64,000 nucleotides of DNA from contig JAISJI010000055.1 in assembly GCA_031261605.1 (NCBI GenBank), positions 12,844-76,843 on the forward strand. Reading direction: 5' to 3'. Positions 42,549-58,848 of this stretch are shown here, piece by piece (the stretch's first letter is position 1; each line of letters begins with the position of its first letter). Made by a program: the position numbers and the translations under genes. This DNA is from Ignavibacteria bacterium. Its GTDB lineage: Bacteria > Bacteroidota > Ignavibacteria > Kapaibacteriales > UBA2268. Under the pieces are notes generated by a model, which made no database searches, had not been told where the DNA came from, and was given only the letters and a program-made list of their open reading frames with translations.

Positions 42549-42555
42549 GTGAAAT

Positions 42556-44238
42556 ATGAGAACAATTTACATTTTTGTTATAATCACATTGTTGTCTGTT
42601 TTGCCGGCGTATTCGTTGGTTGAGTATATGAATGTATGGACAATAGGCGGTGCAAAGCAAAGTATAGATATTAATATAATAGATACTATCATATTCAAAA
42701 ATAAGCAGATGCAGATGTTTTATAAAGATTTATCGAGCGACGCTATTGAAGTAGATAATATTGATAGCATTACATATTCGGTCGATGCAACAACACGCTT
42801 CGAACATATTCAATATCTCTTAAATCAATCTAAGAATAGCAATATAAAGAGTTATTACGTTTCTTTGCAAGGTAATGATTACTCTGGCGATGGCTCACTG
42901 AGCAAGCCGTGGAAGAGCGTTAAGTTTGCTATCAATACCGTTCCGGATGATTCTTGCGTAATTAGAGTGATGCCCGGCGAATATGAATCTGTCGGATATT
43001 TGACACGAAAGTTTAGCAAAAAAATACTAATAATTGCGGAGACAGCATATATTAAGATGAAAGGTGGAACGGATGCTCATAGAATATTCTTTTTTGATAA
43101 AGCAGAGAATTATATAGTTGCGGGCTTTGAGATTACAGGTAATCCGAATGTGAATAATTGGGAGGAGAAATACTCGCATTTAATACAGATTTCGGAATCA
43201 AATCACATTACATTTGAGAATTGTATTATCCACGATTGCTATAACAATGATAATATTAAAATAAATCTATACAGCACCGATATTGTGTTTAGAGGAAATG
43301 CTATATATAATCAATGTCAGAATGAAAATTCTGGCGACCAGCATTACGATGTTGTCGGTGGGAATGATTTGGTAATAGAAGACAATATATTTTTCAATGA
43401 CTTCAAGGCGTCGGGACGTCCGGAGATTAACAATGGCTCGGCATCATTCATAATGATAAAGTGCTTCAATGTTCCTAATCCTCCATCTAAGAATATATAT
43501 ATTGCGCGAAATGTATTTTTGAATTGGTGGGGAAAGGCAGACCAATCAATGCTTCTACTAGGAGAAAACGGCTTTCCACTGCACAATGTAGAGGGAGCAT
43601 TGATAGAGAATAACCTTTTCATCGGTAATACAGAAAATCGTATGTCGGGCGTGATTTCTCTTAAAGGAGCAAAAGATGTCACTATTCGTGCAAATACAAT
43701 TACTGGCTTTGTAAAACACGGCTGGGGCTGGAACCCGGGTGAAGGAAATTTTGGCTATGGCATTAGAGTTCAATGCGAAGGACAAAATCCACCACACGAA
43801 AATATTAACGTATATAACAATATATGGTCAGACCCAACAGGACGTATGCTATTCTTTTCCGCTCACAGCAAAGCGAATATGGCGAGTGGCGAATTAATGA
43901 ATAACTTGTTCTATAACAATGGAAATACGATAGAAGAGAAGCCAAATAATTGCTTTACTCCTGCAATGGATACACAAAAAATAGTAGCCGACCCGTTGCT
44001 TGAAACGGACTATAGCAAGGTTGTCACACCGGTATGGAATGCGACTCTGAAGCAATTTGGCGGAGGTGCAAAGAGTGTAGAGGAAGCGAGAGTGATGCTA
44101 ATAGAGACCTTTGGTAAATTCAAATCCTCATCTTCACCGGCAATAAATGCAGCATCGCCAGAGCAAATGCCAGCCAACGACATATTATTCAGGCATAGAA
44201 CAGATGGCAAGCCAGACATAGGGGCATTCGAGGAATAA
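42556..44238 (+). CDS. secreted right-handed parallel beta-helix (pectate-lyase-fold) repeat protein
   Basis: Signal peptide; recurring NxxIxxN / beta-helix rung patterns (ITFENCIIHDC, VFRGNAIYN, IEDNIFFND, IENNLFIGN, IRANTITG). Confidence 0.6.
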   Translation: MRTIYIFVIITLLSVLPAYSLVEYMNVWTIGGAKQSIDINIIDTIIFKNKQMQMFYKDLSSDAIEVDNIDSITYSVDATTRFEHIQYLLNQSKNSNIKSYYVSLQGNDYSGDGSLSKPWKSVKFAINTVPDDSCVIRVMPGEYESVGYLTRKFSKKILIIAETAYIKMKGGTDAHRIFFFDKAENYIVAGFEITGNPNVNNWEEKYSHLIQISESNHITFENCIIHDCYNNDNIKINLYSTDIVFRGNAIYNQCQNENSGDQHYDVVGGNDLVIEDNIFFNDFKASGRPEINNGSASFIMIKCFNVPNPPSKNIYIARNVFLNWWGKADQSMLLLGENGFPLHNVEGALIENNLFIGNTENRMSGVISLKGAKDVTIRANTITGFVKHGWGWNPGEGNFGYGIRVQCEGQNPPHENINVYNNIWSDPTGRMLFFSAHSKANMASGELMNNLFYNNGNTIEEKPNNCFTPAMDTQKIVADPLLETDYSKVVTPVWNATLKQFGGGAKSVEEARVMLIETFGKFKSSSSPAINAASPEQMPANDILFRHRTDGKPDIGAFEE

Positions 44239-44300
44239 AATAGCAAAAAAAACAATAATTTTATATTATATAATTGTTTCATTAATTATACTAATCTTTT

Positions 44301-46379
44301 ATGGTAATTACACCTATTCTTACTCTTGCTATCATTATAGCAATTTTTGTTCTTGTCCTATTATTCAATGCGTTTGCTATCGTCAAATCTGATGAGTTAG
44401 CCACTATAGAACGCCGTTATCTTGGTAAAGAGATGCCTAATGAACGGACTGTTGCCCTACGAGGCGAGGTCGGTATTCAGGCAAATCTTTTCGGTCCCGG
44501 TCTCCATTTCCTAATCCCCTTTGTTCAAAAGGTAAAGAAGTATAAGTACTTCGTTATCAATGAAGGAGAGATAGGTTGTGTAGAAGCAATTACAGGTACT
44601 CCTATCAAATCTGGTAACGTTATGGCTTCCAAAGTGGAATGTGATATGTTCCAAGATGGAGAAGCATTCCTCTTAAATGGCGGACAGAAAGGTCCTCAAT
44701 TAGATGTTCTTCCTCCAGGAGAGTATCGCATCAATCCACATCTTTTCATTCTCCATAAGTTCTCTGAGGTTAATGTGGAAAATGGACATCTTCGTGTTGT
44801 TTCTGCTATTGATGGCGGGAAGTTAAAAGACGGAAGAATCTTGGCGGATTCTGTCTCTGGTCATTGTAACTTCCAAAAGGCAGATGAGTTTTTAAAGAAT
44901 GGCGGACAAAGAGGTCAGCAGATTGACTTCTTAATGCCAGGTACTTATCGTATAAATCTCTTAATGTTTCAAATCTCTGATAATATCCAGTGGGTATCTA
45001 TTGACTCAAAACATATTGGTGTTGTAACTACAAAAGAAGGTCATCCTATTTCTAATCCTAACGCTATTGCTGCTAAAGAGTTTAATCTGGAGAGACATTC
45101 TAATTTCCAAGACGCCTCTAAATTCTTAGAAATTGGTGGTGAGAAGGGATTACAACCTTATGTCTTGAGACCTGGTCAGTATGCTATCAACCCATTCTTC
45201 GCTTCTGTTTCATTAGAGGAGATGGTAGAGATAGATATAGGTCAATGTGCAGTAGTAACATCTTATGTAGGACAGGAATATGAAGCACCTGCTGAAGATA
45301 GTAAATCTCATAATGTTAATGCTAAGTTAGTCCCTACTGGATACAAAGGTATATGGAATGTTCCGTTAGGACCTGGTATGCACCCTCTTAACCCGAGAAC
45401 CTGTTCATGGTCTATTGTTCCTACTACTCAGGTTGTTTTAAGTTGGGCTAATGCTAAATCCTCTGCTTATGATTACGATAAAAACTTAAAGACCATTACG
45501 TTAAGGACCTCTGATGCCTTTGATGTTAATATGGATGTTCAAGTGATGTTCCATATCCCTATGGATAAAGCACCTGCTGTTGTTGCTGACCTTGGTTCTA
45601 TACAAGATTTAATCACACAAGTACTTGAACCTGCTGTTAGTTCCCATTTTAGGAATGCTGCTCAAGAGGTCAAAGCACTTGATTTATATACACAACGTGC
45701 GGGGCTTGCATCTAGGGCGAAGTCCCAGATAGCAGATGTTCTTGGTCTCTATCATATTGAATCTCGTGATGTTATGATAACTGATGTTATTCTACCCGAA
45801 GAGATTGTTGCTCCTGTTAAGTTGGCTGCTATTGCTATTGAAGATAAAAAGAAGTTTGAGAACCAGGAAGTTGCTCAAAATGCTAGAAAGAGCTTAGAGT
45901 TTGCTAAGAAGCAGGCGGATATGCAGGAAGCGCTTGTTGCATCACAGCGTGAGATTGAAATCTCTGATAATAAAGCGAAATCTGTTGCAAAAACTGCTGA
46001 AGGTGAAAGAAATGCCAGCATTTTTAGAGCAGAAGCTGAAGCGAAACAAATAGAGTTAAAAGCTACAGCGGATGCTATGCAGATAAAACTTATTGCTGAT
46101 TCTCAATCAGAGAGTATTCGTAAGGTCGGTCTGGCCGAGGCAGAAATCATTATGGAGAAAGGTAAATCACAGGCGGAAGCATATAAACTATCGCAGGAAG
46201 CACTTGGCGATGATTATGCGAAATTGCAAATGGTTGAATCTCTTGGTTATAATCAAGTAAAACTTATCCCTGACAATATCATTATCGGTGGTTCGGAGGG
46301 TGGTAGTTTGATTAATCAGTTTATGGCTATTGAAATGGCTGAGAAGGTAACGGGTAAATCTTGGAATACTTCTAAATAG
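44301..46379 (+). CDS. flotillin-like SPFH/band-7 protein with three N-terminal NGGQxGxQ repeats
   Basis: N-terminal TM helix; three tandem repeats (NGGQKGPQLDVLPPGEYRINP / NGGQRGQQIDFLMPGTYRINL / IGGEKGLQPYVLRPGQYAINP); SPFH core; flotillin-like Ala/Glu-rich coiled-coil C-terminus. Confidence 0.7.
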   Translation: MVITPILTLAIIIAIFVLVLLFNAFAIVKSDELATIERRYLGKEMPNERTVALRGEVGIQANLFGPGLHFLIPFVQKVKKYKYFVINEGEIGCVEAITGTPIKSGNVMASKVECDMFQDGEAFLLNGGQKGPQLDVLPPGEYRINPHLFILHKFSEVNVENGHLRVVSAIDGGKLKDGRILADSVSGHCNFQKADEFLKNGGQRGQQIDFLMPGTYRINLLMFQISDNIQWVSIDSKHIGVVTTKEGHPISNPNAIAAKEFNLERHSNFQDASKFLEIGGEKGLQPYVLRPGQYAINPFFASVSLEEMVEIDIGQCAVVTSYVGQEYEAPAEDSKSHNVNAKLVPTGYKGIWNVPLGPGMHPLNPRTCSWSIVPTTQVVLSWANAKSSAYDYDKNLKTITLRTSDAFDVNMDVQVMFHIPMDKAPAVVADLGSIQDLITQVLEPAVSSHFRNAAQEVKALDLYTQRAGLASRAKSQIADVLGLYHIESRDVMITDVILPEEIVAPVKLAAIAIEDKKKFENQEVAQNARKSLEFAKKQADMQEALVASQREIEISDNKAKSVAKTAEGERNASIFRAEAEAKQIELKATADAMQIKLIADSQSESIRKVGLAEAEIIMEKGKSQAEAYKLSQEALGDDYAKLQMVESLGYNQVKLIPDNIIIGGSEGGSLINQFMAIEMAEKVTGKSWNTSK

Positions 46380-46409: not shown

Positions 46410-46676
46410 ATGGAGAATGATATTATAACAAAGGAATGGCTTAATGCTAATTTTGTTTATGATGAGAATCTTAAAATGTGGAGAGCATCATCAGATGTTG
46501 ATGGGAAATGGTATATTAAGAGATATTCATATGAACCTGACACATTTGCATTATATCTTCGTTTATTTGATGCTCCTCACTTACGTGATTTATATGCCAT
46601 TATTTATAAGGGAACTTCTATACAAGAACTTCTTAAGCACCTATCTGGTTTGGATGATGGTTCAAAATCTTCGTGA
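46410..46676 (+). CDS. small hypothetical protein (AT-rich islet)
   Basis: 88-aa ORF with no recognisable family; first gene of the AT-rich segment upstream of the CRISPR array. Confidence 0.35.
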   Translation: MENDIITKEWLNANFVYDENLKMWRASSDVDGKWYIKRYSYEPDTFALYLRLFDAPHLRDLYAIIYKGTSIQELLKHLSGLDDGSKSS

Positions 46677-46721
46677 ACTATAACTTTTAGAATTTCTTTT
46701 CGTAGTTGCATTTACTTTTAT

Positions 46722-46750
46722 GTTGTAAATTGGTCTCAATTTTGTTATTT
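46722..46750 (+). repeat. solitary partial CRISPR repeat (29-nt 5' half GTTGTAAATTGGTCTCAATTTTGTTATTT, identical to the array repeat)
   Basis: Exact match to positions 1-29 of the 46-nt repeat, about 2.3 kb upstream of the first canonical repeat. Confidence 0.8.
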
Positions 46751-46859
46751 ATACTATTAGTAGTAATGGTATTATCTAGTGCTACACTGCAAGCCACTAT
46801 CACTATTTAACATTTTACATATAATGGTGTTCCTTTAAGAAGATTTGTTTGTTTTGATA

Positions 46860-47084
46860 GATGAATTAGATTTAGATGATTCAACCTCTTATACTGCTAT
46901 TACATCGTGGTCTTCAAAATCAGCAAAAGGCTATATAACACTATATCTGAATGAAAAAATGCAAATTTGTGTCAGCTATACAGATTATAATGGCGATGTT
47001 GTTTATGATAAACAACATCCGGACGAGGATGTATATGAAGACGGAGGAGATTATGATGGATATGGAGAAGATTATGATGAATAA
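46860..47084 (+). CDS. small highly acidic hypothetical protein (C-terminus DEDVYEDGGDYDGYGEDYDE)
   Basis: ORF 46845..47084 with a likelier start at the ATG at 46860; strongly acidic, Tyr/Asp-rich tail. Confidence 0.4.
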   Translation, partial: DELDLDDSTSYTAITSWSSKSAKGYITLYLNEKMQICVSYTDYNGDVVYDKQHPDEDVYEDGGDYDGYGEDYDE

Positions 47085-47092
47085 TGTAAATA

Positions 47093-47800
47093 ATGCTTCA
47101 CAAGACAGAACTAAATATGAAGATAATTGATAAAAACAAAGATTATTATGATTACTTACAAGGCATAAATGGAATAGACCCTCAAGTTACTTTTGATAGG
47201 AGAGGTTCATTTATGCCTTCTATAAACTGGTTAAATAGTTTCATTATACCTTATCAAGAACCTGATAAATATCTTTTTCCTAACATAAACAAAAGCAAAA
47301 TAGTATTAGAAGTAGGGTTTCAACACTACATATTAGAGATAGAAAGAATGAAAGATGAAACTTGCAAATATAAATTGCATTCTCAGAGTAGAGATGAACA
47401 TTGTGGAGCATCTGTTATAGGAATATATCGCTTATCTTATTATTCAAGAGATGATAGGTGGAAAGTAACTAAAGAAACTCATATTCCGACTATTTTAGTA
47501 TCTGATAGTGAAACTAAAAGTAATATAGAATATGATGTTGTTATGACCCCTTGTTTCAAATGTTTATCTTCTGATACAGAAAATGTTAGACAATCTCCAT
47601 ATCTAAACCCAATATTAAAAGATACATTCATTCCTTCTATTATAGATGCACAAACTATCTGGAACAACATATATGAATATATTAGTTTTACTAATGAACC
47701 TTTAATAACAGATAGTATGACAGATAAAGAAAAATTAGAATCGAAAGGGTTTGATAACAAAAGTTCATTTAGACATCCGGTAAAATACGTTATGATTTGA
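47093..47800 (+). CDS. hypothetical protein; 3' end overlaps a degenerate CRISPR repeat
   Basis: 235-aa ORF; the last codons (..YVMI*) are encoded by repeat variant GTTATGATTTGA... Confidence 0.4.
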   Translation: MLHKTELNMKIIDKNKDYYDYLQGINGIDPQVTFDRRGSFMPSINWLNSFIIPYQEPDKYLFPNINKSKIVLEVGFQHYILEIERMKDETCKYKLHSQSRDEHCGASVIGIYRLSYYSRDDRWKVTKETHIPTILVSDSETKSNIEYDVVMTPCFKCLSSDTENVRQSPYLNPILKDTFIPSIIDAQTIWNNIYEYISFTNEPLITDSMTDKEKLESKGFDNKSSFRHPVKYVMI

Positions 47801-47833
47801 TTACATTTTAGTATATTTGTGGTGATACACAAC
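47789..47833 (+). repeat. degenerate CRISPR repeat (GTTATGATTTGATTACATTTTAGTATATTTGTGGTGATACACAAC)
   Basis: Shares termini GTT.TG...ACAAC and the central TTTGT.GTGGAT/A.ACAAC block with the canonical repeat; nearly identical to the variant at 48783. Confidence 0.75.
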
Positions 47834-47919
47834 CAAACTATTGCTTGATATTTCTACGAGATACAAGGAATTACAGAGTTGAACAAGGCGAAGGCATATT
47901 ATAATTTTATATAACAATT

Positions 47920-48477
47920 ATGAAAACTTACAATGATTATAAAGATTTGTTATTACAAATCAATTCATATCTAAATGAATCAGTTGATTTTAGTTTAAAT
48001 TTTAAGAGAAAATTAACTGATGATTTGTTAAAATTAAGCTATGTATTAGATGAATTTTATAATAATATTTTAACAGATAAAAATGGAAATATACATAATA
48101 GAAATACTGAAAGTTTTTATGTACATATTCATAAACCTGGAAAACATTTAGCAAAAATAAGAATCAGTGAATATGCACCTTTGTCATTCAATAAAATTGT
48201 AAATGATATTGTAAAAAATAAATATCAATATTATTATATCATAAATTTAACAGGGACAGAATGGAATAGTGTATTTAGTAAATTTTTTTTAAGACAATGT
48301 GTACTTCAAGCTGATGTATCAAATTTAACCCAAGTTGATTATGTATCCAAATCTATCATAAGTAATGATGTAAACAAACTGGTTATTAATATTATGGATA
48401 CTATATTGACATATTTACAAACCAACAACATAATTATATCAGGTTTAGAAATAGATTGGAACATATCAAAAATATAA
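47920..48477 (+). CDS. hypothetical protein (AT-rich, Asn/Tyr/Lys-rich)
   Basis: 185-aa ORF between two degenerate repeats; no family recognised. Confidence 0.4.
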   Translation: MKTYNDYKDLLLQINSYLNESVDFSLNFKRKLTDDLLKLSYVLDEFYNNILTDKNGNIHNRNTESFYVHIHKPGKHLAKIRISEYAPLSFNKIVNDIVKNKYQYYYIINLTGTEWNSVFSKFFLRQCVLQADVSNLTQVDYVSKSIISNDVNKLVINIMDTILTYLQTNNIIISGLEIDWNISKI

Positions 48478-48482
48478 ATATT

Positions 48483-48794
48483 ATGAAAAATTATCAAACA
48501 TACAAAATACTATCACTTATGGACAAAGTGCCTGTAGTAGATATGGCTACCTATATAGGTAAAATTTCACCATCTCTGTATGGTGAAGGTAAGGTTAAAC
48601 TCAAACAGAGAGATTGGTTCTACAATTTATCTACTGATGGAGGTGGTTATGTATATTACCATCATAAACAAGCATTATATGAGATAGTGGATAGAGACCT
48701 AATACTTTGTAAGAATATTGATTATAATTTGATACATCTGGTGATTGACAACTTCAGCAACTCAGTTCCCAATATATGGCACGTTATGATTTGA
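48483..48794 (+). CDS. hypothetical protein; 3' end overlaps a degenerate CRISPR repeat
   Basis: ORF 48456..48794, probable start at the ATG at 48483; ends ..HVMI* inside repeat variant GTTATGATTTGA, mirroring the gene at 47093. Confidence 0.35.
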   Translation: MKNYQTYKILSLMDKVPVVDMATYIGKISPSLYGEGKVKLKQRDWFYNLSTDGGGYVYYHHKQALYEIVDRDLILCKNIDYNLIHLVIDNFSNSVPNIWHVMI

Positions 48795-50042
48795 TTACAT
48801 TTTCGTTATATTTGTGGTGATACACAACAACTACTACTGCATTAACTACTGCTAATACGTTGTGATTTGCGTTCTTTTTCGTTATATTTGTGGTGATACA
48901 CAACACACGAAAAAAGCACGTCATTTGTCTTGAAGTTGTGATTTGCGTTCTTTTTCGTTATATTTGTAGTGGATTACAACTCCAAGCAGCGTTAGTATTG
49001 AATCTCTTCAGTTGTAAATTGGTCTCAATTTTGTTATTTTTGTAGTGGATTACAACTCTGTTGCCTCTCTGGGTCTTAATGCACGGTTGTAAATTGGTCT
49101 CAATTTTGTTATTTTTGTAGTGGATTACAACCTTGTTCTTTCCATACTTTATTTCAATGAAGTTGTAAATTGGTCTCAATTTTGTTATTTTTGTAGTGGA
49201 TTACAACTAATTATTATCTAACGCGTCGCACGGAATGGTTGTAAATTGGTCTCAATTTTGTTATTTTTGTAGTGGATTACAACATACCGATCAAATGAAT
49301 CGTTCGGAACGATGTTGTAAATTGGTCTCAATTTTGTTATTTTTGTAGTGGATTACAACTTCATTAACAATAAATTTACCACTATTTTGTTGTAAATTGG
49401 TCTCAATTTTGTTATTTTTGTAGTGGATTACAACAGTTGGTGGCTTTGTATCAGTGCCTGCTGTGTTGTAAATTGGTCTCAATTTTGTTATTTTTGTAGT
49501 GGATTACAACTTTTTAATATAATTTTCAATATATTCACCTGTTGTAAATTGGTCTCAATTTTGTTATTTTTGTAGTGGATTACAACCGTCTAAATTTGGG
49601 ATACCAACAAACGATTGTTGTAAATTGGTCTCAATTTTGTTATTTTTGTAGTGGATTACAACTATTGATGGCAACACAACGAGCAAAGAGTTGTTGTAAA
49701 TTGGTCTCAATTTTGTTATTTTTGTAGTGGATTACAACAATATGTTCGCTCATATCGTATTCTATATAGTTGTAAATTGGTCTCAATTTTGTTATTTTTG
49801 TAGTGGATTACAACTATAAGTATAGCGTATGTCTTGGCTCTGCCGTTGTAAATTGGTCTCAATTTTGTTATTTTTGTAGTGGATTACAACTTTCCTGGAT
49901 TGACTAATATTTATTATTTAGTTGTAAATTGGTCTCAATTTTGTTATTTTTGTAGTGGATTACAACGATTCTGAAGTGGATATTTATAGCAGCGGCGTTG
50001 TAAATTGGTCTCAATTTTGTTATTTTTGTAGTGGATTACAAC
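48783..50042 (+). CRISPR. CRISPR array: 17 repeats of 46 nt (14 canonical GTTGTAAATTGGTCTCAATTTTGTTATTTTTGTAGTGGATTACAAC from 49011, plus 3 progressively degenerate repeats at 48783, 48859, 48935), 16 spacers of 29-30 nt
   Basis: Repeat starts read directly: 48783, 48859, 48935, 49011, 49086, 49162, 49238, 49314, 49389, 49465, 49541, 49617, 49693, 49769, 49845, 49921, 49997. The repeat has the 7-bp terminal inverted repeat GTTGTAA / TTACAAC. Confidence 0.95.
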
Positions 50043-50094
50043 ATTCCCACTGCAACACTCGCAATAACAGTAACTTATACTAAACACTACGAAT

Positions 50095-50145
50095 GAAAAA
50101 AGAGCGAGCTTTTGAAATAGAAAGCCCGCTCTTTTGTTTTTTTGC
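50095..50145. terminator. bidirectional terminator-like hairpin (AAAAAA AGAGCGAGC...GCCCGCTCT TTTGTTTTTTT) between array and tracrRNA
   Basis: Stem flanked by an A-tract and a T-tract, so it can act on either strand. Confidence 0.55.
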
Positions 50146-50248
50146 AATCTTGCAGATAAAAAAATATCTGATAACAATATATTCAAATTATTTTTGTATA
50201 TTGCGTTCTCTTGTATTGCGATTTAAGTAATCTAAGTATAATCCGTTT

Positions 50249-50345
50249 AAAAAACAGAAACCCAACATAAATGCTGGGCTGCCGTGATGTTTTCACAACG
50301 GAATAATCCTTATTGTAAATTGTTCTCAATTTTGAATTACAAATA
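50249..50345 (-). ncRNA. predicted tracrRNA (anti-repeat + hairpins + intrinsic terminator), transcribed on the minus strand toward the array
   Basis: Plus-strand 50312-50342 ATTGTAAATTGTTCTCAATTTTGAATTACAA is a diverged repeat copy. Its minus-strand transcript UUGUAAUUCAAAAUUGAGAACAAUUUACAAU pairs with repeat positions 1-23 (about 22 bp, one mismatch). It is followed by stem-loops (CCGUUGUGAAAACAUCACGG; CAGCCCAGCAUUUAUGUUGGGUUUCUG) and UUUUUU. Confidence 0.6.
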
Positions 50346-50366
50346 TAACTATATTTTTGTTAACTA
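50331..50366 (+). promoter_or_regulatory. putative Bacteroidetes-type promoter for cas9 (-33 TTTG at 50331, -7 TATTTTTG at 50352-50359)
   Basis: TAnnTTTG-type -7 element 28 nt upstream of the cas9 ATG; -33/-7 spacing of 17 nt is slightly shorter than the 19-21 consensus. Confidence 0.35.
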
Positions 50367-50387
50367 CCAAATATTATCAAAATTATT

Positions 50388-53300
50388 ATGAAAAAAGTTT
50401 TAGGTTTAGATTTAGGAACGACTTCTATTGGCTGGGCATTGGTAAATAGAGCCGAAACAAAAGAAGAACGCTCAAATATTATTAAATTAGGTGTTAGAGT
50501 TGTGCCATTGTCTGTTGATGAAAATCTGAACTATGGCAAAGGGAAACCTATAACTACCAATGCTGGCAGACGGTTAAAGCGTGGAATGCGCCGAAATCTC
50601 CAGAGGTATAAGTTGCGTAGAGAAAATCTAATAGAAATTCTTAAAGACAATAAGTTCATTACAGATGATACTTTTCTCTCGGAAGAAGGTAAAGACACTA
50701 CATTTGAGACATATACACTGCGGGCAAAGGCAGTAACCGATGAGATTGCACTAGACGAATTGGCAAGAGTATTGCTGATGATTAATAAGAAACGTGGCTA
50801 TCGGAGTGGTAGAAAGGTAACAAACGATGAAGATGGCCAATCTGTTGATAGTATGGAGGTCGCTAAGAATTTATATCAAGATAATCTAACCCCAGGTGAA
50901 TTCAGTTTAAATCTGCTAAAGCAAGGTAAAAAAGAACTACCGGATTATTATCGCACTGATTTAAAAGCTGAAATAGATAAAATATGGGAATACCAACGAG
51001 AATATCACTCAGAAATACTTACAGACGAACTTAAAATACAACTTGAAGGAAAAGGACAAAAGGCAGCTGCACAACTATTCTTTGCTAAGTATGGATTTAA
51101 TACCGCAGATGTGAAAGGCAGTAAAGAAGCACAAAAACTGAAAAAATATGAATTGCGAGTGGATGCCTTGACAAAGGAGTTGGATAAAGAGGAACTTGCA
51201 CTTGTAATTTCAAATATTTGTGGTGAAATTAATAGTTCGAGTGGATACTTGGCAGCGATAAGCGATAGAAGTAAGGAACTGGAATTTAATAACCAAACTG
51301 TTGGTCAGTATTTTATGGAGCAATTAGCAAAAAATTCACATTTCAGTGTCAAAAATAAGATCTTCTACAGACAAGATTATATTGACGAATTTGAAAAGAT
51401 ATGGTCGACGCAAAGTAAATTCCATACAGAACTAACTAACGAATTGAAATCAAAAATTAGAGATGTGATTATTTTTTATCAACGAAGATTGAAGAGTCAA
51501 AAAGGGCTGATTAGTTTCTGCGAGTTCGAAAGAAGAGAAGTTGAAATAGAGATTGACGGCAAAATAAAGGAGAAGGTAGTTGGCTCAAGAGTCGTGCCTA
51601 AATCTTCTCCTTTATTTCAAGAATTTAAAATATGGCAAATCCTTAATAATATTCAGGTTACAACACATAAGCAGACGGGCGAATATTTTGAATTAGAGCA
51701 AGACCAAAAGGAATACTTAGCACAGGAATTGAGTATTAGAACAAAATTATCTGCCACAGAAGCATTAAAGCTACTATACCCCAAAGAAGACAAAGATTAT
51801 GATTTGAATTACAATATATTGGAAGGAAATAAGACGCAAGCAGAGTTATTTGATGTATACAAAAAAATTATAGTGGAAAGTAATAGATTAAGCGACCACG
51901 ATTTTTCAAAAATGAATGCAAAGCAAACAATAGAGGCGGTAGCAGAAATATTTGACGACTTGGGATACAGCACGGATATTTTGGAATTTGATTCTTCTTA
52001 TGAAGGAGATATTCGCCAGCAGCCGATGTATAAATTGTGGCATATATTATATTCGTATGAGGGTGATAGTGGAAATGAAAAATTAGAAAAGAAATTAACC
52101 GACTTATATGGATTTGCGCAAGAAACTGCTAAACGTATTGCAAATATTTCTTTTTCGTTGGATTACGGAAACTTAAGCGCGAAAGCAATTAAAAAGATAC
52201 TGCCATTTCTAAAAAGTGGCTCACGCTATGATGAATCTGTAGAAAAAGGAGGATATGATAGACATTCTAAGAGTTCGCTGACAAAAGAAGAAATTGATAA
52301 TAAGATATTGAAAGATAAATTAAAAAACCTTCCTAAAAATTATTTACGTAATCCAGTTGTAGAGAAGATTTTAAATCAAATGGTAAATGTAGTAAATGCT
52401 ATTATTGATACTTACGGCAAACCAGATGAAATAAGCGTTGAACTTGCGCGAGAATTGAAAATGAATGCAAAAGAGAGAGAAAATAAAACGAAAGCAATAT
52501 CCAAATCTAACAAAAACAACGAAGCAATAAAAAAACGTTTGAAGGATGAATTTAGTATCAGTAATGTAAGTCATAATGATATATTGCGTTATAAGTTATA
52601 TCAGGAACTGAAAGATAATGCCTATAAGACACTTTATTCAAATCAATATATCCCGCAGGAAAAATTATTTAGCAAAGAAATTGACAGAGACCATATTATT
52701 CCGCAATCCCGTTTATTTGATGATTCATTCTCCAATAAAATATTGGAATATAAAAGCGTTAATATTGAAAAAGGAAATGAAACCGCTTATGATTATGTTC
52801 TAAATAAATATGGAAAAGAGAAAATTGATGATTATTTATCAAAAATAAATAAATTGTATGCCAACAAATCCATATCCAAGACGAAATACAATAAATTGAA
52901 AATGAAAGGCATAGACATCCCAGATGATTTTATTGAAAGGGACATAAAAGATACTCAATATATTGCAAAAACAGCCAAAAATATGTTAGAGGAAATTGTA
53001 AATGTTGTCATTTCCACTTCAGGGGAAATAACAAGCAAACTACGTGAGGATTGGGGATTAGTAGATATAATGAAGGAATTGAATTGGGATAAATACAGCA
53101 AACTTGGATTAACAGAAGTGATAGAAAATGAAGAAGGACATAAAATAAGCAAAATTAAAGATTGGAATAAGCGTAACGACCATCGCCATCACGCAATGGA
53201 TGCTCTAACCGTTGCATTTACTACGCGTAGCCATATCCAGCACCTCAATACATTGAAATCTAATTCTGAATCTGACTTAATTTATAAGGACAAGAGAAAT

Positions 53301-54494
53301 AAAAAGAAGTTCTCGCCACCTATCCCGGAAAAAGATTTTAGAGCCGAAGCAAAAGAGCATTTAGAAAACACCTTAATTTCAATTAAAGCAAAAAATAAAG
53401 TAGCAACCATAAATACTAATAAAACTAAAACAAATACAAAAAATAATTTCAAAGAAACTAAACAACTCACCCCACGCGGACAACTGCATAACGAGACAAT
53501 ATATGGAAGTATTCAACAAAATATTGTGGTTTTCGAAAAAATTGGTAGTTCATTTGATGCAGATAAAATAAATAAAGTAACAAAACCTGCATATAAAGAG
53601 GCGTTATTAGAACGTCTACATAAGTTTAATGATGACCCAAAACTTGCTTTTACTGTGAAAAATAGTTTATCAAAAAATCCGATATACTTAAATGATTTGC
53701 AAACTAATAAGGTACCAGAAAAAGTAAAAATAGAAAAAATAGAAACAATTTATACTATTCGTAAAGATATTAAGCCAGATTTAAACGTAGAAAAAGTAGT
53801 CGATTCTAAAATCCGTAAGTTATTGGAAAAGCGTATCAAAGAATATAATAACGACCCTAAAAAAGCATTCGAAAATTTAGATGAAAATCCTATTTGGCTT
53901 AATGAGAAAAAATGCATATCTATCAAGCGTGTTACCATACGTGGCGTTAGTAATACTGAGCCACTGCATAGCAAAAAAGATAAAGATGGCAAATTATTAT
54001 TAGATGGAAGCGGACAAAATATACCTATTGATTTTGTTCAAACCGGTAACAATCATCACGTGGCTATGTACAAGGATCAAGATGGAGATCTGCAAGAAAA
54101 TGTGGTCTCTTTTTACGAGGCAGTTTTGCGTAAAAATGATAAATTGCCAATAATGGATAAGAATTTTAATAGCGAACTTGGTTGGCAGTTTATGTTTTCT
54201 ATGGAGCAGAACGAATATTTTATTTTTCCAAATGAACAAACAAGATTCAATCCCAATGAAATTGATTTATTAGAACCAAATAATTATCATCTAATTAGCC
54301 CAAATTTATATAGAGTGCAAAAACTTGCTACAAAAAATTATATGTTTAGACATCATTTAGAAACAGATGTTCAGGAAAGAAAAGAACTTAAAGGTATTTC
54401 ATATAAATTGATACAAAGTACAAAATACTTAGAAGACATTGTAAAGGTTCGTACGAATCACCTTGGACAAATTATATCTGTTGGAGAATACTAA
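50388..54494 (+). CDS. cas9: type II CRISPR-associated endonuclease Cas9 (1368 aa)
   Basis: RuvC-I MKKVLGLDLGTTSIGWAL; RuvC-II ISVELARELKMNAKER; HNH DRDHIIPQS...NKILEYKSVNIEKGN; RuvC-III HHAMDALTVAF; Arg-rich bridge helix GRRLKRGMRRNLQRYKLRR. Confidence 0.95.
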   Translation: MKKVLGLDLGTTSIGWALVNRAETKEERSNIIKLGVRVVPLSVDENLNYGKGKPITTNAGRRLKRGMRRNLQRYKLRRENLIEILKDNKFITDDTFLSEEGKDTTFETYTLRAKAVTDEIALDELARVLLMINKKRGYRSGRKVTNDEDGQSVDSMEVAKNLYQDNLTPGEFSLNLLKQGKKELPDYYRTDLKAEIDKIWEYQREYHSEILTDELKIQLEGKGQKAAAQLFFAKYGFNTADVKGSKEAQKLKKYELRVDALTKELDKEELALVISNICGEINSSSGYLAAISDRSKELEFNNQTVGQYFMEQLAKNSHFSVKNKIFYRQDYIDEFEKIWSTQSKFHTELTNELKSKIRDVIIFYQRRLKSQKGLISFCEFERREVEIEIDGKIKEKVVGSRVVPKSSPLFQEFKIWQILNNIQVTTHKQTGEYFELEQDQKEYLAQELSIRTKLSATEALKLLYPKEDKDYDLNYNILEGNKTQAELFDVYKKIIVESNRLSDHDFSKMNAKQTIEAVAEIFDDLGYSTDILEFDSSYEGDIRQQPMYKLWHILYSYEGDSGNEKLEKKLTDLYGFAQETAKRIANISFSLDYGNLSAKAIKKILPFLKSGSRYDESVEKGGYDRHSKSSLTKEEIDNKILKDKLKNLPKNYLRNPVVEKILNQMVNVVNAIIDTYGKPDEISVELARELKMNAKERENKTKAISKSNKNNEAIKKRLKDEFSISNVSHNDILRYKLYQELKDNAYKTLYSNQYIPQEKLFSKEIDRDHIIPQSRLFDDSFSNKILEYKSVNIEKGNETAYDYVLNKYGKEKIDDYLSKINKLYANKSISKTKYNKLKMKGIDIPDDFIERDIKDTQYIAKTAKNMLEEIVNVVISTSGEITSKLREDWGLVDIMKELNWDKYSKLGLTEVIENEEGHKISKIKDWNKRNDHRHHAMDALTVAFTTRSHIQHLNTLKSNSESDLIYKDKRNKKKFSPPIPEKDFRAEAKEHLENTLISIKAKNKVATINTNKTKTNTKNNFKETKQLTPRGQLHNETIYGSIQQNIVVFEKIGSSFDADKINKVTKPAYKEALLERLHKFNDDPKLAFTVKNSLSKNPIYLNDLQTNKVPEKVKIEKIETIYTIRKDIKPDLNVEKVVDSKIRKLLEKRIKEYNNDPKKAFENLDENPIWLNEKKCISIKRVTIRGVSNTEPLHSKKDKDGKLLLDGSGQNIPIDFVQTGNNHHVAMYKDQDGDLQENVVSFYEAVLRKNDKLPIMDKNFNSELGWQFMFSMEQNEYFIFPNEQTRFNPNEIDLLEPNNYHLISPNLYRVQKLATKNYMFRHHLETDVQERKELKGISYKLIQSTKYLEDIVKVRTNHLGQIISVGEY

Positions 54495-55394
54495 ATGCTC
54501 AAACAAACCCTCTACTTCGGCAACCCCGCTTATTTATCTGTGAAAAATAAACAACTCGTTGTTAAATTGATAGATAGCGATGAGATAATCACTCGCCCAA
54601 TCGAAGACATCGGTATCGTTATTTTAGATAATTGGCAAATCACTATAACCCAAAACGTTATCGCATCTCTCCTCGAAAATAACGCCGCTATTATACATTG
54701 CAATAATGCACATCTCCCTGTCGGTCTTGTCCTTAATTTAGATGGTAATACCTTGCAATCCCAACGCTTTAAGACACAAATAAATGCTTCCGAACCACTA
54801 AAAAAACAACTCTGGCAACAAATAATTAAAGCAAAAATAGAAAATCAATCGCTGCTCCTAAAAAGCCAAAATAAAGATATTAAACGACTCCAAGTTATGC
54901 TCCGCAATCTTAAAACAGGCGATACAGATAATTATGAAGCACAAGCGGCAGCGTATTATTGGAAAAATATTTTTAGCAACTATCTCCCTAATTTTAAGCG
55001 AGATAGAGAAGGTGACCAGCCGAATAATTTGCTAAATTATGGTTATGCAATTTTGCGTGCAGCAGTTGCACGAGCACTTGTTGGCTCTGGTTTATTGCCA
55101 ACTCTGGGCATTTTTCACCGCAACCAATATAACGCATATTGTTTAGCAGATGATATTATGGAACCATATCGTCCATTTGTGGATAGAGCCGTTTTTAATT
55201 ACTTAAAAGAAAATAAATATTGCGATTTCTTGGATACAGAAGCGAAAAAATATTTATTCCAAGTAATGCAAGACGATGTGATGTTTGGAAAAGAGCGAAG
55301 CCCTTTATTTGTTGGACTTACAACGACAACTGCTTCACTTGTAGCGTGCTTTGAAGGCAAAAAGCGAAAAATAAAATATCCAACAATCTGCTAA
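54495..55394 (+). CDS. cas1: CRISPR-associated endonuclease Cas1 (type II)
   Basis: 299 aa; NLLNYGYAILRAAVARALVGSGLLPTLGIFHRNQYNAYCLADDIMEPYRPFVD; start overlaps the cas9 stop (TAAATG). Confidence 0.95.
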   Translation: MLKQTLYFGNPAYLSVKNKQLVVKLIDSDEIITRPIEDIGIVILDNWQITITQNVIASLLENNAAIIHCNNAHLPVGLVLNLDGNTLQSQRFKTQINASEPLKKQLWQQIIKAKIENQSLLLKSQNKDIKRLQVMLRNLKTGDTDNYEAQAAAYYWKNIFSNYLPNFKRDREGDQPNNLLNYGYAILRAAVARALVGSGLLPTLGIFHRNQYNAYCLADDIMEPYRPFVDRAVFNYLKENKYCDFLDTEAKKYLFQVMQDDVMFGKERSPLFVGLTTTTASLVACFEGKKRKIKYPTIC

Positions 55395-55443: not shown

Positions 55444-55785
55444 ATGTATATTATGCAACGACTTAGTGAGTATAGAATTATGTGGGTTATGGTTTTATTT
55501 GACTTGCCGACAGAAACCAAAGTTGACCGCAAGCGATACACACAATTCCGCAAAGAATTACTGAAAGATGGATTTGATATGTTTCAGTTTTCTATTTATG
55601 TCCGACATTGTGCCAGCAGAGAAAATGCACAAGTCCATATAAAACGTGTCAAAGATAAAATGCCACAATTCGGACAAATCGGACTAATGACTATTACCGA
55701 CAAGCAATTCGGGCAGATAGAAATTTTCTGTAATCGCAAAGTTGTCGAACCATCTCACGTTCAGATGCAATTAGATATGTTTTGA
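55444..55785 (+). CDS. cas2: CRISPR-associated endoribonuclease Cas2
   Basis: About 100-113 aa; VLFDLPTETKVDRKRYTQFRKELLKDGFDMFQFSIYVRHC is a typical Cas2 core; exact start uncertain (several in-frame ATGs). Confidence 0.9.
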   Translation: MYIMQRLSEYRIMWVMVLFDLPTETKVDRKRYTQFRKELLKDGFDMFQFSIYVRHCASRENAQVHIKRVKDKMPQFGQIGLMTITDKQFGQIEIFCNRKVVEPSHVQMQLDMF

Positions 55786-55805
55786 GTGAATTGGAAAACT
55801 ATCCT

Positions 55806-55995
55806 TATTTCTTAATAAATTTCTCTACTTCATTACTCTTGCCATTTTTCAAACGAACAAAATACGTTCCAACAGTGAAATTGCTCATATCTATTGCGGT
55901 CTCAAGCATTCCATCTGTTGTTTGTTTAACTTCTGGAGACAATGAACCATACTCTCCTTGTTTAGACAACTTTGTAGATGTTTCCAGCGGTAAGC
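55806..55995 (-). pseudogene. orphan fragment encoding a T9SS-type C-terminal domain remnant (...GTYFVRLKNGKSNEVEKFIKK*)
   Basis: Minus-strand reading frame immediately downstream of cas2 preserves the GTYFVRL motif also seen in the T9SS CTD of the protein at 42021-42548; only about 38-62 codons with no upstream domain. Confidence 0.3.
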
Positions 55996-56018
55996 CATAA
56001 TTTTAAGTAAAAAATCAC

Positions 56019-58658
56019 CTAATACTTAATAACTGATTTTACTATACGCCGACCATTAACAACCATAGTTATATAATATACACCTGCAGGAAAATTATAC
56101 AAATCAAAAGATTGTGAAAAAATTCCGGCAACCGCTTTATTATCATAAACTTGCATTACTTCTCTGCCTAGTATATCATTAATTGTAATTGTTAAACTTG
56201 CATCAACTTGCAAATTCAGAACAATATTCGCTTTATCATTTATCGGATTCGGGTAGATTAATATGTTTTCATTGGAATAGTTATCTGCTTCAATAGCAGT
56301 AGGATATGGTGTTTTCAACCGAAAGACGCTAGCACCACTAGTGCTAACATAAATCATAGTTGAATCAAATGGGTCTTCTTGTATGCTAGCCACAGAATGA
56401 AATAGAAAGCCCGGAACTTCACACCAGTCGTCGGGCATTGTATTTGCTCCCTTGAAGGAAACAAGCACCTGACCGATGCCATTCCCAAGATACAAAACAT
56501 CAGCGTTACGACTATCCACGTGAATAGCATTTGTAGTTATAGTATCAGGATAAATCTCACGCCAAGCATTTCCGCCATCCGTAGATACATAAGCACCACT
56601 ATTGAAGTAATGTATATTTTCGCCCCATTCTCCAGCAGAATGCCGATATCCCGTTGTATAAATTGTATTATTATTGCTATTTGGAGCAACAGATATGCTA
56701 TTGAGCATCGTTACGCTATTGTTATTTGGATAGTTAGCCAATTTAATCCATTGTGTCGCATTTTTATCTAAATAGTAAGTGGAACTCTCTGCCGATGATT
56801 TTTCATTGGAAGAAAATAGGCAATATAAGCGGGAATAATCCGGAGACCACACAAATTTTGATGTATGATATCGTGTTTCATTCATTCCGTCATTAAATTT
56901 CGTGAAAGTTTGTCCGCCATCCGTAGATTTATATACACCATAGCCAAAGCAAGTGACATACACAACACGCTGAGCAGGATTTGTGGGACTATTCGGGTCA
57001 ATAGTTATAGAAGTGCAGATAGCGTGGTCGGGTAATCCGCTAACTCCATCGTTGTCTGTGTAAGATGTCTTATCAGAGTTAGGATTAATAGGAATCCAAT
57101 TCTTACCGCCATCAATGCTTCTTGCAACTCCACCAATATATGAGCCAGAATGATTTTCCACAAGATTGATAGCAGCTGCCACATCTTTGCTGTGCATATT
57201 GCTCCAAGCAGAAAGAATAAAGTCCCTATTATCTTTGTCAAATGCAATGTCATAACAAGTATTTAGCCAGCCAGAGGGAATACCATTTTTACTCCAATTC
57301 CAACTCTTGCCACCATCTTTTGACTCCATTAGAAATATATCCGTATAGCAAATGAATTGATGTAGCGAATCAAAAGGGTCTACATAATATCCATGATTAC
57401 AAGTGACCCATAATCCACGACTTGAATATGTATTAGTAGTAGAGTCATAATCATTAGAAATGGACTCCCAAGTGTCGCCTCCATCCCTAGTAATAAGGGC
57501 ATCACCCATATTTGTCATTATAGCAATATTCGGGTCCGAGAGCGATGCAGAAAGCCCAGAACTTGTGCCACTCCAACCAAATTCCCCTACCCAAACATCT
57601 ACATAATACGGATTATTAATGTTGGATAACGACCAGCCCTTCAATCCAATTTTCCAAGACGCTCCTCCATCGAATGTCCTTGCTACTCCCATATCCATTC
57701 CTCCTGTTTTGCTATCCAAAGTATCGCCGAAGCATACATAAATATCATTTAACGAACTAACAGCAAGTTGTTTAAATATTCGCTTCCCGTTTGAATTTGG
57801 CTCACCAGTATTCCAATGCAGCCAGCGTTCGGAAAATGTTGTTGTAATTGGCAACCAAGTAATTCCACCATCATTGGAACGACTAACTTGATTAGCAAAT
57901 TTATCTACACCAGTTGTTGCTGATTCTATAATGAAGAAGTAATTCTTATTCGTTTGCTTGTCATAGTATATTGCACCCGATTTATTTGCTCTTAACAATA
58001 TTGTATCTACCTTGCCGTTATCGCTAACTTTGAATACCCCTTTGGCAGATAATATATCTAATTTGCGAGAACCAACTGGCGATGTCGGGTCTATCTGAAA
58101 GCCAGCATAAGAATCACCAAGGTCAGGGAATAACTTATTCGCTAACGATGCGATAACTTTCCAATTCTCACCATTATCTGTTGATTTATAGATAGTTGGC
58201 TTAGGTTCCCACTGCGCATCATAGTAGCCCGACGTTACAAAATACATTGTATTGCTATCTGCCGGGTCCATTACCATACCAATAATCTTTCCCTCGTGAA
58301 CGGTCAGATTCGCAATATTACTCGTATCTTTTGGGAAAATTATCTTAAATGTCTCTCCACCATCGGTAGAAAGGGAAAGATAAGTATTCAACGCAAATAC
58401 TTTCTTTGCATTATGCGGTGAACAGTAGAACCTGCCTCTATTCTGAAACTTATGCAACTTAAAGTTTTTGCCACCATCTCTACTACTAAAAGCACTCGAC
58501 ATATCGCAAAATATAAAGATATTATCATTATTCAATGAATTGATTAGAGGAAAAAGCATCCGTCCGCCGCCGCCAGGACCAAGTGCCTCTTTGGAGAAAA
58601 GATTGTTTGTTGCTACTGTCATAGTAGCAAGAACGAATAGTAGTAATAGTTTTTTCAT
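56019..58658 (-). CDS. secreted BNR/Asp-box (sialidase-like / Sortilin-type) repeat protein with T9SS C-terminal sorting domain
   Basis: Signal peptide; at least 9 Asp-box repeats (STDGGETF, STDNGENW, SNDGGITW, TFDGGASW, TRDGGDTW, SKDGGKSW, SIDGGKNW, STDGGQTF, STDGGNAW); C-terminal YPNPINDKANIVLNL...GVYYITMVVNGRRIVKSVIKY. Confidence 0.8.
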   Translation of the reverse strand: MKKLLLLFVLATMTVATNNLFSKEALGPGGGGRMLFPLINSLNNDNIFIFCDMSSAFSSRDGGKNFKLHKFQNRGRFYCSPHNAKKVFALNTYLSLSTDGGETFKIIFPKDTSNIANLTVHEGKIIGMVMDPADSNTMYFVTSGYYDAQWEPKPTIYKSTDNGENWKVIASLANKLFPDLGDSYAGFQIDPTSPVGSRKLDILSAKGVFKVSDNGKVDTILLRANKSGAIYYDKQTNKNYFFIIESATTGVDKFANQVSRSNDGGITWLPITTTFSERWLHWNTGEPNSNGKRIFKQLAVSSLNDIYVCFGDTLDSKTGGMDMGVARTFDGGASWKIGLKGWSLSNINNPYYVDVWVGEFGWSGTSSGLSASLSDPNIAIMTNMGDALITRDGGDTWESISNDYDSTTNTYSSRGLWVTCNHGYYVDPFDSLHQFICYTDIFLMESKDGGKSWNWSKNGIPSGWLNTCYDIAFDKDNRDFILSAWSNMHSKDVAAAINLVENHSGSYIGGVARSIDGGKNWIPINPNSDKTSYTDNDGVSGLPDHAICTSITIDPNSPTNPAQRVVYVTCFGYGVYKSTDGGQTFTKFNDGMNETRYHTSKFVWSPDYSRLYCLFSSNEKSSAESSTYYLDKNATQWIKLANYPNNNSVTMLNSISVAPNSNNNTIYTTGYRHSAGEWGENIHYFNSGAYVSTDGGNAWREIYPDTITTNAIHVDSRNADVLYLGNGIGQVLVSFKGANTMPDDWCEVPGFLFHSVASIQEDPFDSTMIYVSTSGASVFRLKTPYPTAIEADNYSNENILIYPNPINDKANIVLNLQVDASLTITINDILGREVMQVYDNKAVAGIFSQSFDLYNFPAGVYYITMVVNGRRIVKSVIKY

Positions 58659-58848
58659 TCTTTTTTATAAATAATTTTATTAAATAAACATTTTTACTCT
58701 ACAAAAATAAGAATATTTATTTAATATATACTTGTATGTGTGCAAAGTTATTTATCTAAGTAGGCATAATGAGAAAGAGAAAAAAACTACATCAGCAATA
58801 AATAATGAATTATACAAAGAAACTTGCTAAATATTCGTATATTGCACA

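Follow-up and report, generated by a model that had tools for sequence, protein, structure and literature searches.

The question raised by the locus described here is how guide RNAs come to be expressed from a CRISPR array in which every repeat carries what reads as a complete promoter. The array is found in a stretch of DNA of 64,000 nucleotides (nt) from a genome labelled Ignavibacteria bacterium (contig JAISJI010000055.1 of assembly GCA_031261605.1, positions 12,844 to 76,843), which we refer to in its entirety as the window, and it lies beside a gene for Cas9. An earlier note on this DNA, prepared from its letters only, had claimed that each repeat contains a near-consensus promoter of the Bacteroidetes type and that CRISPR RNA (crRNA) is transcribed from repeat after repeat. 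Having followed this claim through the window and through a large family of related loci, we consider it likely, with a probability of roughly 0.7, that the repeats act as promoters and that each guide RNA is transcribed individually, a conclusion that we draw from sequence.

An exact-string search locates 14 identical 46-nt repeats, GTTGTAAATTGGTCTCAATTTTGTTATTTTTGTAGTGGATTACAAC, on the plus strand of the window, from 49011 (start of the first) to 50042 (end of the last), and zero copies of this repeat on the minus strand. They enclose 13 spacers of 29-30 nt, each unique. The array had originally been described as spanning 49011-50042, and the 14 repeats are indeed found there, but three further, diverged repeats extend it upstream. 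The elements on which the argument rests are as follows.

49011..50042, plus strand: main CRISPR array, 14 repeats (exact copies) and 13 spacers.
48783-48828, 48859-48904 and 48935-48980, plus strand: three diverged repeats enclosing 2 spacers, at the old end of the array, upstream with respect to transcription.
Layout of the repeat: positions 1-23, predicted to pair with the trans-activating CRISPR RNA (tracrRNA); positions 2-4, TTG (candidate -33 element); positions 25-32, TATTTTTG (candidate -7 box); positions 33-46, tail ending in ACAAC; position 37, predicted start of transcription.

Repeat positions 25-32 are an exact match to the motif TAnnTTTG, positions 1-4 read GTTG, and the gap from G4 to T25 is 20 nt. 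The composite TTG-N20-TATTTTTG occurs in 14/14 main repeats and TTG-N20-TATATTTG in 3/3 of the diverged variants, all on the plus strand; motif, spacing and strand are as had been claimed. Allowing a spacing of 18-20 nt, the composite is present on the minus strand of 0/17 repeats, and only two instances are found in the other 60.3 kb of the window with both strands counted. The box by itself occurs 121 times in the window, compared with 83 ± 8.7 expected, with 17 of these occurrences contributed by the repeats of the array and one by a solitary repeat at 47789-47834; a scan for sigma-70 promoters gave no enrichment (21 vs 18.4 expected). The diverged repeats are informative in this regard since their 5′ half is strongly altered (GTTGTGATTTGCGTTCTTTTTCG) and the box TATATTTG is intact at the same position. 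Relative to the main repeat 13 of 38 positions outside the box have changed, together with 0/6 constrained and 1/2 free (n) positions within it. The repeat at 48935 is a chimera that joins a variant 5′ half to a 3′ tail of the main type. The main repeat is T-rich, and when it is shuffled the box appears by chance in 9.7% of cases and the composite in 0.5%; for this reason the evidence from the single locus is suggestive only.

Any reading of the box as a promoter for crRNA depends on knowing which strand is transcribed, and here the predicted tracrRNA and the genes that follow it must be introduced.

50249..50335, minus strand: predicted tracrRNA of ~87 nt, composed of anti-repeat, AAGGATTATTCC nexus, GTTGTGAAAACATCACGG hairpin and, at 50280-50259, a terminator with a U-run after it.
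50340..50347, minus strand: predicted -7 box TATATTTG of the tracrRNA promoter, with TTG 20 nt upstream and a predicted start at 50335, one nt before the anti-repeat.
50352..50359, plus strand: TATTTTTG box, likely the cas9 promoter, 36 nt upstream of the cas9 start codon.
50388-54494, plus strand: cas9, 1368 amino acids (aa), TIGR01865 with E 4e-156.
54495-55394, plus strand: cas1, cas1_NMENI with E 2.5e-92.
55444-55785, plus strand: cas2, E 3e-18.

The anti-repeat, which is the complement of 50312-50334, pairs with repeat positions 1-23 through 21/23 matches, one G-U pair and one mismatch, and is followed on the minus strand by the module AAGGATTATTCCGTTGTGAAAACAT, a hairpin and a terminator with its U-run; the predicted RNA folds with z = -4.2. 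Because anti-repeat, module and terminator all lie on the minus strand, the assignment of the crRNA to the plus strand is secure as judged from these sequences, and the orientation given to the array in the earlier note agrees with it. The handle of the main repeat is GTTGTAAATTGG and that of the diverged repeats is the canonical Bacteroidales type, GTTGTGATTTGC. A manual comparison of the diverged 5′ half with the local anti-repeat gives 9/23 mismatches, so that pairing between crRNAs of the diverged repeats and the tracrRNA of this locus is improbable. The locus has the gene set of type II-C, cas9-cas1-cas2 without csn2 or cas4. No further cas gene was recognized among the neighbouring open reading frames (ORFs) at 44301-46379, 46410-48794, 55782-56000 and 56019-58658, which are without a Cas match in NCBIfam and/or Pfam; both collections were used for the ORF at 44301-46379 and for the three ORFs closest to the array (47093-48794).

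The strongest evidence for the box comes from related loci. Our set of relatives consists of 160 loci, drawn from species-representative genomes and metagenomes, in which Cas9 is 54-62% identical to that of the window and arrays were found de novo; 98 of these have repeats of 44-50 nt, which reduce to 82 distinct repeats that we oriented by tracrRNA evidence. Of the distinct repeats 72/82 have an exact TAnnTTTG on the crRNA strand, with its first base at position 23-27, and 2/82 have any such box on the other strand; shuffling predicts 5.3%. In a profile anchored on the box and built from 40 distinct repeats the eight positions of the box carry 2.0, 2.0, 1.6, 1.4, 2.0, 2.0, 1.5 and 1.8 bits, followed by eleven positions with 0.1-0.5 bits each. 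Mean pairwise identity amounts to 0.93 in the box, 0.91 in the first 12 nt, 0.375 in the 11 nt after the box and 0.75 in the last 5 nt. By these sequence measures the box is the best-conserved block of the long repeats, and its conservation across relatives puts the motif beyond chance; the comparison of repeat consensus sequences that had been suggested as a check on the promoter claim thus gives a clearly favorable result. Orientation can be relied upon in that the 26-nt module that follows the anti-repeat in the window recurs in 75/75 relatives (TAAGGATTATTCCGTTGTGAAAACAT being invariant), with a terminator in 69/75. Closer relatives were sought without success: no identical Cas9 is on record, the best relative in genomes or metagenomes being 62% identical, and no metagenome contig contains an exact match to the 5′ half of the main repeat.

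The position of the box relative to the remainder of the repeat is also instructive. Measured from either end of the repeat it moves by ±2 nt, leaving 13-17 nt after it. Length changes on the two sides of the box offset each other, so that the repeat as a whole stays at 46-48 nt, and the 11-nt stretch that corresponds to positions 33-43 in the window is near-random between lineages and identical within each array. We also considered the box as a part of the duplex with tracrRNA and rejected this assignment, as local alignments of repeat and anti-repeat stop at repeat positions 22-27, where the box begins.

A useful internal standard is provided by the strikingly uniform promoters of the tracrRNA genes in the same loci, in a segment ~40-140 nt upstream of cas9. 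Upstream of the tracrRNA an exact TAnnTTTG on the tracrRNA strand is found in 72 of 83 distinct regions. In 42/72 of these promoters the distance from the G of the box to the first base of the anti-repeat is 4 nt, and it would seem that the tracrRNA starts exactly at the anti-repeat, with no 5′ extension. TTG is enriched 18, 19 and 20 nt upstream of the tracrRNA-promoter box, in 8, 22 and 15 cases, respectively (45/72). In the repeats the spacing between TTG (positions 2-4) and the box is 18 nt in 19 cases, 19 nt in 33, 20 nt in 11 and 21-22 nt in nine, with the mode at 19 nt and the window at 20 nt, a distribution that is the same as that in the tracrRNA promoters. Both series agree with the geometry published for Flavobacterium. 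The consensus quoted for this genus is TTG-N17-23-TANNTTTG (bioRxiv 10.1101/172254), so that the 20-nt spacing of the window falls inside the published range of 17-23 nt, and in Flavobacterium psychrophilum a TAnnTTTG-type box occupies -12 to -5 (PMC9723704).

Taken with the 4-nt gap in 42/72 tracrRNA promoters, the -12 to -5 geometry leads to a predicted crRNA start near position 37 of the repeat, which lies five nt beyond the G of the box and is itself a G in 17/17 repeats. The earlier note had put the start at repeat position 39-41 with only the last few repeat nucleotides left at the 5′ end of the crRNA; on both counts the calibration gives a different result, since a start near position 37 of a 46-nt repeat, downstream of a box that sits in mid-repeat, would endow the crRNA with a repeat-derived 5′ tag of ~10 nt. 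That RNase III would be dispensable for the formation of crRNA 5′ ends, as the note also argued, is only an analogy.

A further point concerns whether the host makes use of such boxes elsewhere. Within the window the density of TAnnTTTG is 2.7 times higher in non-coding than in coding DNA. Divergent intergenic regions have a box aimed at the gene in 6/6 cases, and in total 13 boxes face a gene start and six face away from one. Among these gene-directed promoters, one at 58709 (minus strand) has the 12-mer TTATTTTTGTAG in common with the repeat. From these sequences the host itself appears to use the TAnnTTTG motif. The translation initiation factor IF-2 encoded in the window is closest, among named matches, to that of Kapabacteria (58-61% identity), and the host belongs to the FCB group and not to Bacteroidia, the source being labelled as an Ignavibacteria metagenome-assembled genome (MAG). 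Although its intergenic regions appear to employ the same box, the host is not a member of the Bacteroidetes in the strict sense, and the description of the promoter as Bacteroidetes-type requires amendment to that extent.

The mechanism that we propose is the following. The 5′ half of the repeat (positions 1-23) would serve as the crRNA handle that pairs with tracrRNA, and the 3′ half as a promoter of the Bacteroidota/FCB type for the primary sigma factor of the host, with TATTTTTG at positions 25-32 as the -7 box, the repeat's own TTG at positions 2-4, 20 nt upstream of the box, as the -33 element, and a lineage-variable 14-nt tail ending in ACAAC after it. RNA polymerase would initiate at about position 37 of every repeat to produce a nested set of plus-strand transcripts, each consisting of a repeat tail of ~10 nt (GGATTACAAC), a spacer and the downstream units as far as a terminator at 50095-50145. 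The tracrRNA, expressed from its own minus-strand TAnnTTTG promoter and starting at the anti-repeat, would base-pair with the first 23 positions of each repeat, and the crRNA 3′ ends would be defined when this duplex is cut, presumably by RNase III. Transcription of the array would proceed toward the end at which spacers are acquired, as in other II-C systems, and, with promoters carried by the repeats, expression of the newest spacers would not require one upstream of the array. The sequences show the motifs with their strand and conservation, the point at which pairing with tracrRNA ends, and the terminator; that transcription begins at each repeat, where precisely it starts, cleavage by RNase III and the direction in which spacers are added are all features that we infer.

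Two elements at the downstream end of the array enter into this scheme.

50043..50094, plus strand: leader-like segment of 52 nt, from the last repeat to the terminator, downstream in the direction of transcription.
50095..50145, both directions: bidirectional intrinsic terminator, made up of an A-run, a 15-pair hairpin with one internal mismatch and a T-run.

The hairpin at 50095-50145 was missed by the rule of our terminator scan and was established by direct folding, which gives -21.3 kcal/mol and z = -4.97, with 0/200 shuffles folding equally well. The A-run before and the T-run after it make termination possible in both directions, and a bidirectional terminator immediately after the last repeat is what had been described originally. 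In relatives a hairpin followed by a T-run is located at most 140 nt from the last repeat in 69/82 cases, most T-runs lying at ~80-120 nt, and an A-run at ~50-60 nt is seen in most of the sequences viewed, in the region between array and cas2. A bidirectional terminator thus separates the array from a convergent cas2 in relatives, and from the tracrRNA in the window. In Riemerella a 'palindrome in the leader' has been described (PMC5006608), which probably corresponds to this terminator element. By analogy with II-C arrays, in which transcription runs toward the acquisition end (PMC8092290), 50043-50094 is presumed to be the end at which spacers are acquired; the diverged, old repeats upstream and the leader-like segment and terminator downstream likewise suggest that the array is transcribed toward its acquisition end. 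In Bacteroides fragilis (strain 638R) a 47-nt II-C array arranged 'face to face' with its cas genes gives sense-dominant signals in gut metatranscriptomes (PMC4911918), and transcription toward the cas genes in the manner of this array is the direction that bears the box in 97/98 relatives.

Several observations weigh against promoters in the repeats and must be set beside the evidence above. Ten of the 82 distinct repeats deviate at a constrained position of the box, mostly to TTAG; these exceptions include one-base variants such as TATCTTAG as well as some more diverged repeats. The TTG spacing is as long as 21-22 nt in nine repeats. A start of GTTG is common to many CRISPR repeats and cannot be credited to promoter function alone. 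The chance rate of ~10% for the box in a T-rich repeat is appreciable as far as the window alone is concerned. An in-repeat start leaves a 5′ extension of 10 nt that is absent from other II-C systems. The free (n) positions of the box are almost fixed in relatives, reading TATCTTTG (TC at the free positions) in 63/72 repeats, a narrower choice than the tracrRNA promoters show and a hint that the box may be under some additional or other constraint. Finally, the terminator scan found no plus-strand terminator in 48000-50095, and the ORFs upstream (47920-48794) are on the same strand, so that read-through into the array is possible.

The last two of these points count in favor of a box that is retained for a role other than transcription, for example as an anchor or ruler for the Cas1-Cas2 integrase or as a signal in pre-crRNA, with the array transcribed as one precursor from upstream. 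The n positions that are TC in 63/72 repeats vary freely in tracrRNA promoters of the same loci, and the bases just before the box are conserved too, with G at -1 in 33/40 and T at -3 in 36/40 repeats, all of which speak for this reading, as do the same-strand ORFs at 47920-48794 and the lack of a detected plus-strand terminator before the array. Nevertheless, we regard this possibility as unlikely. What is conserved is an exact sigma-factor consensus, on the crRNA strand only (72 vs 2 of 82) and with a promoter-like TTG spacing; the start of the box varies over positions 23-27 with 13-17 nt after it, a poor fit to an anchor for a fixed ruler; lying outside the tracrRNA duplex, the box would be removed from mature crRNA; and in 97/98 relatives transcription would enter the array from the cas-distal end of the locus, where no shared upstream promoter context is apparent. 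Rather less probable still, in our view, is that the repeat promoters are real and yet weak or conditional, most crRNA being derived from a long precursor with its start further upstream, for instance at the box of the solitary repeat (47812) or of a variant repeat (48807), which RNase III would cut with the help of tracrRNA as in type II-A. The upstream repeat copies do carry the composite promoter, no terminator was found before the array, and a duplex of ~23 bp with tracrRNA is a normal RNase III substrate. If the upstream copies are active, however, there is no reason why the 14 identical copies downstream should be silent, and were the first copy alone of importance it would be difficult to account for a box that is kept in each unit throughout the family.

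That the motif is nothing other than a chance product of a T-rich repeat, multiplied as the repeat was copied, draws some support from the window taken by itself, where shuffles produce TAnnTTTG at a rate of 9.7% and the 14 copies are not independent. It becomes very improbable once it is recognized that the composite with TTG arises in only 0.5% of shuffles and that 72/82 distinct repeats keep the box in the same place and on the same strand, while the adjoining 11 nt fall to 37% identity; an artefact of orientation in the family alignment is excluded by the tracrRNA module in 75/75 loci. Promoters within the repeats remain, for these reasons, the reading that we favor.

The CRISPR island has a GC content of 29-34% vs 37-42% in its flanks, and the closest named relatives of its Cas9 are from Bacteroidales or unclassified Bacteroidota, bar one MAG labelled Oscillospiraceae; almost all of the named loci among the 160 relatives are Bacteroidales or Bacteroidia. 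Horizontal acquisition of the CRISPR system is plausible, and the low GC together with a Bacteroidales-like Cas9 suggests that the system has passed from one class or phylum of the FCB group to another. The placement of the array is unique among 99 loci, as it lies upstream of tracrRNA and cas9 and on the cas9 strand. Of the 98 relatives 97 have it downstream of cas2 in convergent orientation, and in the one remaining locus, which we label L029, it is upstream and on the opposite strand. No remnant of an array was found after cas2 in the window (55786-56018). The chromosomal genes that flank the locus encode IF-2, RNase R, an Fe-hydrogenase, an ABC transporter and proteins with a type IX secretion system (T9SS) tail. 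In view of nearby PHROG matches the possibility that the window is a phage carrying CRISPR-Cas was entertained and rejected, given that IF-2, RNase R, Fe-hydrogenase and ABC transporter genes flank the locus. Upstream of the low-GC island there is a small T9SS-tail protein (42021-42548), a 560-aa protein (42556-44238) with a weak match to a phage tail PHROG, and a 692-aa SPFH/Band-7 protein (44301-46379, phrog_200); the proteins of 42021-46379 may be part of a mobile element beside the CRISPR locus. No protospacer was obtained when the array was compared by blastn with 50,697 phage records, or when three spacer 3′ segments were compared with IMG/VR.

Copies of the repeat are also dispersed among the genes immediately upstream of the array.

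46722-46750, plus strand: partial repeat, by sequence comparison an exact copy of main positions 1-29, with the box destroyed.
46845-47084, plus strand: ORF lodged between repeat copies.
47093-47800, plus strand: phage-like ORF (phrog_4243), with distant homologues (27-29% identity) in Acidovorax phage ACP17 and in an uncultured phage of 642 kb.
47789-47834, plus strand: solitary full variant repeat, with box TATATTTG at 47812-47819.
47920-48477, plus strand: ORF of 185 aa, identical to MDR0927423.1.
48456-48794, plus strand: ORF after the solitary repeat.

Two of these ORFs extend 12 nt into the repeat that follows and end at the same TGA. The sole consensus box upstream of the ORF at 47920-48477 is that inside the solitary repeat at 47789-47834. 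An Rfam scan of 47500-51500 gave sub-threshold matches only, including CRISPR-DR49 at 47789-47833 (E 0.088). The arrangement is reproduced in an independent Logan contig (SRR14710919) that is identical to 46721-48888. Judging by the sequence, recombination may have taken place between the array and foreign DNA bearing solitary repeats. Solitary full or partial repeats are found in relatives as well, 140-630 nt beyond the cas-distal end of the array, in our loci L024 (15136-15179), L074 (13667-13712) and L079 (8018-8047), and further solitary copies occupy the same 140-630-nt zone in L051 (13817-13847) and L067 (13616-13642); they are reminiscent of the interrupted end of the array in the window.

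It is worthwhile to compare the locus with systems that are better characterized. In type II-A, as in Streptococcus pyogenes, a single leader promoter beside the newest spacer drives the array and the pre-crRNA is one long transcript. The locus in the window shares with it Cas9, tracrRNA and a repeat:anti-repeat duplex as the probable processing site, and differs in that the leader-like end is distal with respect to transcription and a promoter signal is present in each repeat. Promoters embedded in the repeats have reportedly been established for the crRNAs of Neisseria meningitidis. In Campylobacter jejuni such promoters were shown by differential RNA sequencing and primer extension (PMC3656092); the 36-nt repeats end in an extended -10 element, GGTAAAAT, and primary transcripts start at spacer position 5 (Dugar 2013, PMC3656092). 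In common with these two II-C systems the locus has a minimal cas9-cas1-cas2 set, a promoter element in every repeat on the crRNA strand, and pairing with tracrRNA that would provide the 3′ processing site; its array, too, may be transcribed toward its leader or acquisition end without a leader promoter. The design of the putative promoter is different: the C. jejuni element is a sigma-70 extended -10 at the 3′ end of a 36-nt repeat, whereas in the window a TTG at -33 and TAnnTTTG at -7 span a repeat of 46 nt. Transcription in C. jejuni starts inside the spacer (position 5), and in the window it is predicted, from sequence, to start ~10 nt before the spacer.

A further comparison is offered by the II-C systems of Flavobacterium columnare and F. 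psychrophilum, where a repeat-encoded TTG (-33) has been proposed with weak support from RNA sequencing (Hoikkala 2021, PMC8092290; PMC10309648). Our reading has in common with that proposal the FCB-type logic, a TTG near the start of the repeat as the -33 element and transcription toward the variable end. The Flavobacterium papers consider the TTG only, with no -7 box inside the repeat (that of F. columnare is 36 nt long), whereas the -7 box is the key element in the window. It has been remarked that II-C repeats of other species are ~11 nt longer, a difference that was left unexplained (PMC8092290), and the unusual repeat length of a subcluster of Bacteroidetes type II systems was noted before that (Chylinski 2013, PMC3737331). 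For the 47-nt repeats of Riemerella anatipestifer no promoter was reported, the predictor used being a non-Bacteroidetes one (PMC5006608), and for B. fragilis neither leader nor promoter was reported (PMC5704556). The system in the window resembles this long-repeat subcluster in having a box at the same mid-repeat site in repeats of the 46-48-nt class and a Cas9 that is 54-62% identical to Bacteroidales Cas9, and its tracrRNA nexus module is identical; an alignment of Bacteroides tracrRNAs has been published for this group (PMC6546382). It is set apart by the placement of its array, by a main-repeat handle of GTTGTAAATTGG vs GTTGTGATTTGC, and by a host labelled Ignavibacteria. Promoters borne by repeats are known, and a conserved -7 box in the long Bacteroidota-type repeats is apparently unreported; a full-text search, in which coverage of subscription journals was thin, found no published description of a -7 TAnnTTTG inside II-C repeats.

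A more general proposition can be put forward tentatively, and to our minds it is a little less probable than its opposite. It states that throughout the clade of Bacteroidota-type II-C Cas9 the repeats are 46-48 nt long because each is both a tracrRNA handle and a complete -33/-7 promoter for the primary sigma factor, the promoter being the most conserved part; that crRNAs would be primary transcripts with a 5′ tag of 10-12 nt, a form undescribed for Cas9; and that copies that have escaped from the array, such as that at 47789-47834, could be portable promoters for genes nearby. If promoters do reside in the repeats, the ~11-nt greater length of the repeats in this Cas9 clade than in other type II systems, noted in 2013 and in 2021 without explanation, would be accounted for, and the reported lack of a promoter in the repeats of Riemerella, the reported lack of a leader or promoter in B. 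fragilis and the existence of arrays that are transcribed toward the cas genes would be reconciled. The prediction that follows is a simple one, namely that primary 5′ ends would be found five nt after the box in every repeat. Where native Cas9 arrays of Bacteroides, or of related bacteria from gut and environment, are reprogrammed, a single repeat-spacer-repeat unit would be self-expressing, and repeats inserted elsewhere would add promoters. The II-C strategy of one promoter per spacer would then have been rebuilt with a different sigma-factor consensus and at a different site in the repeat.

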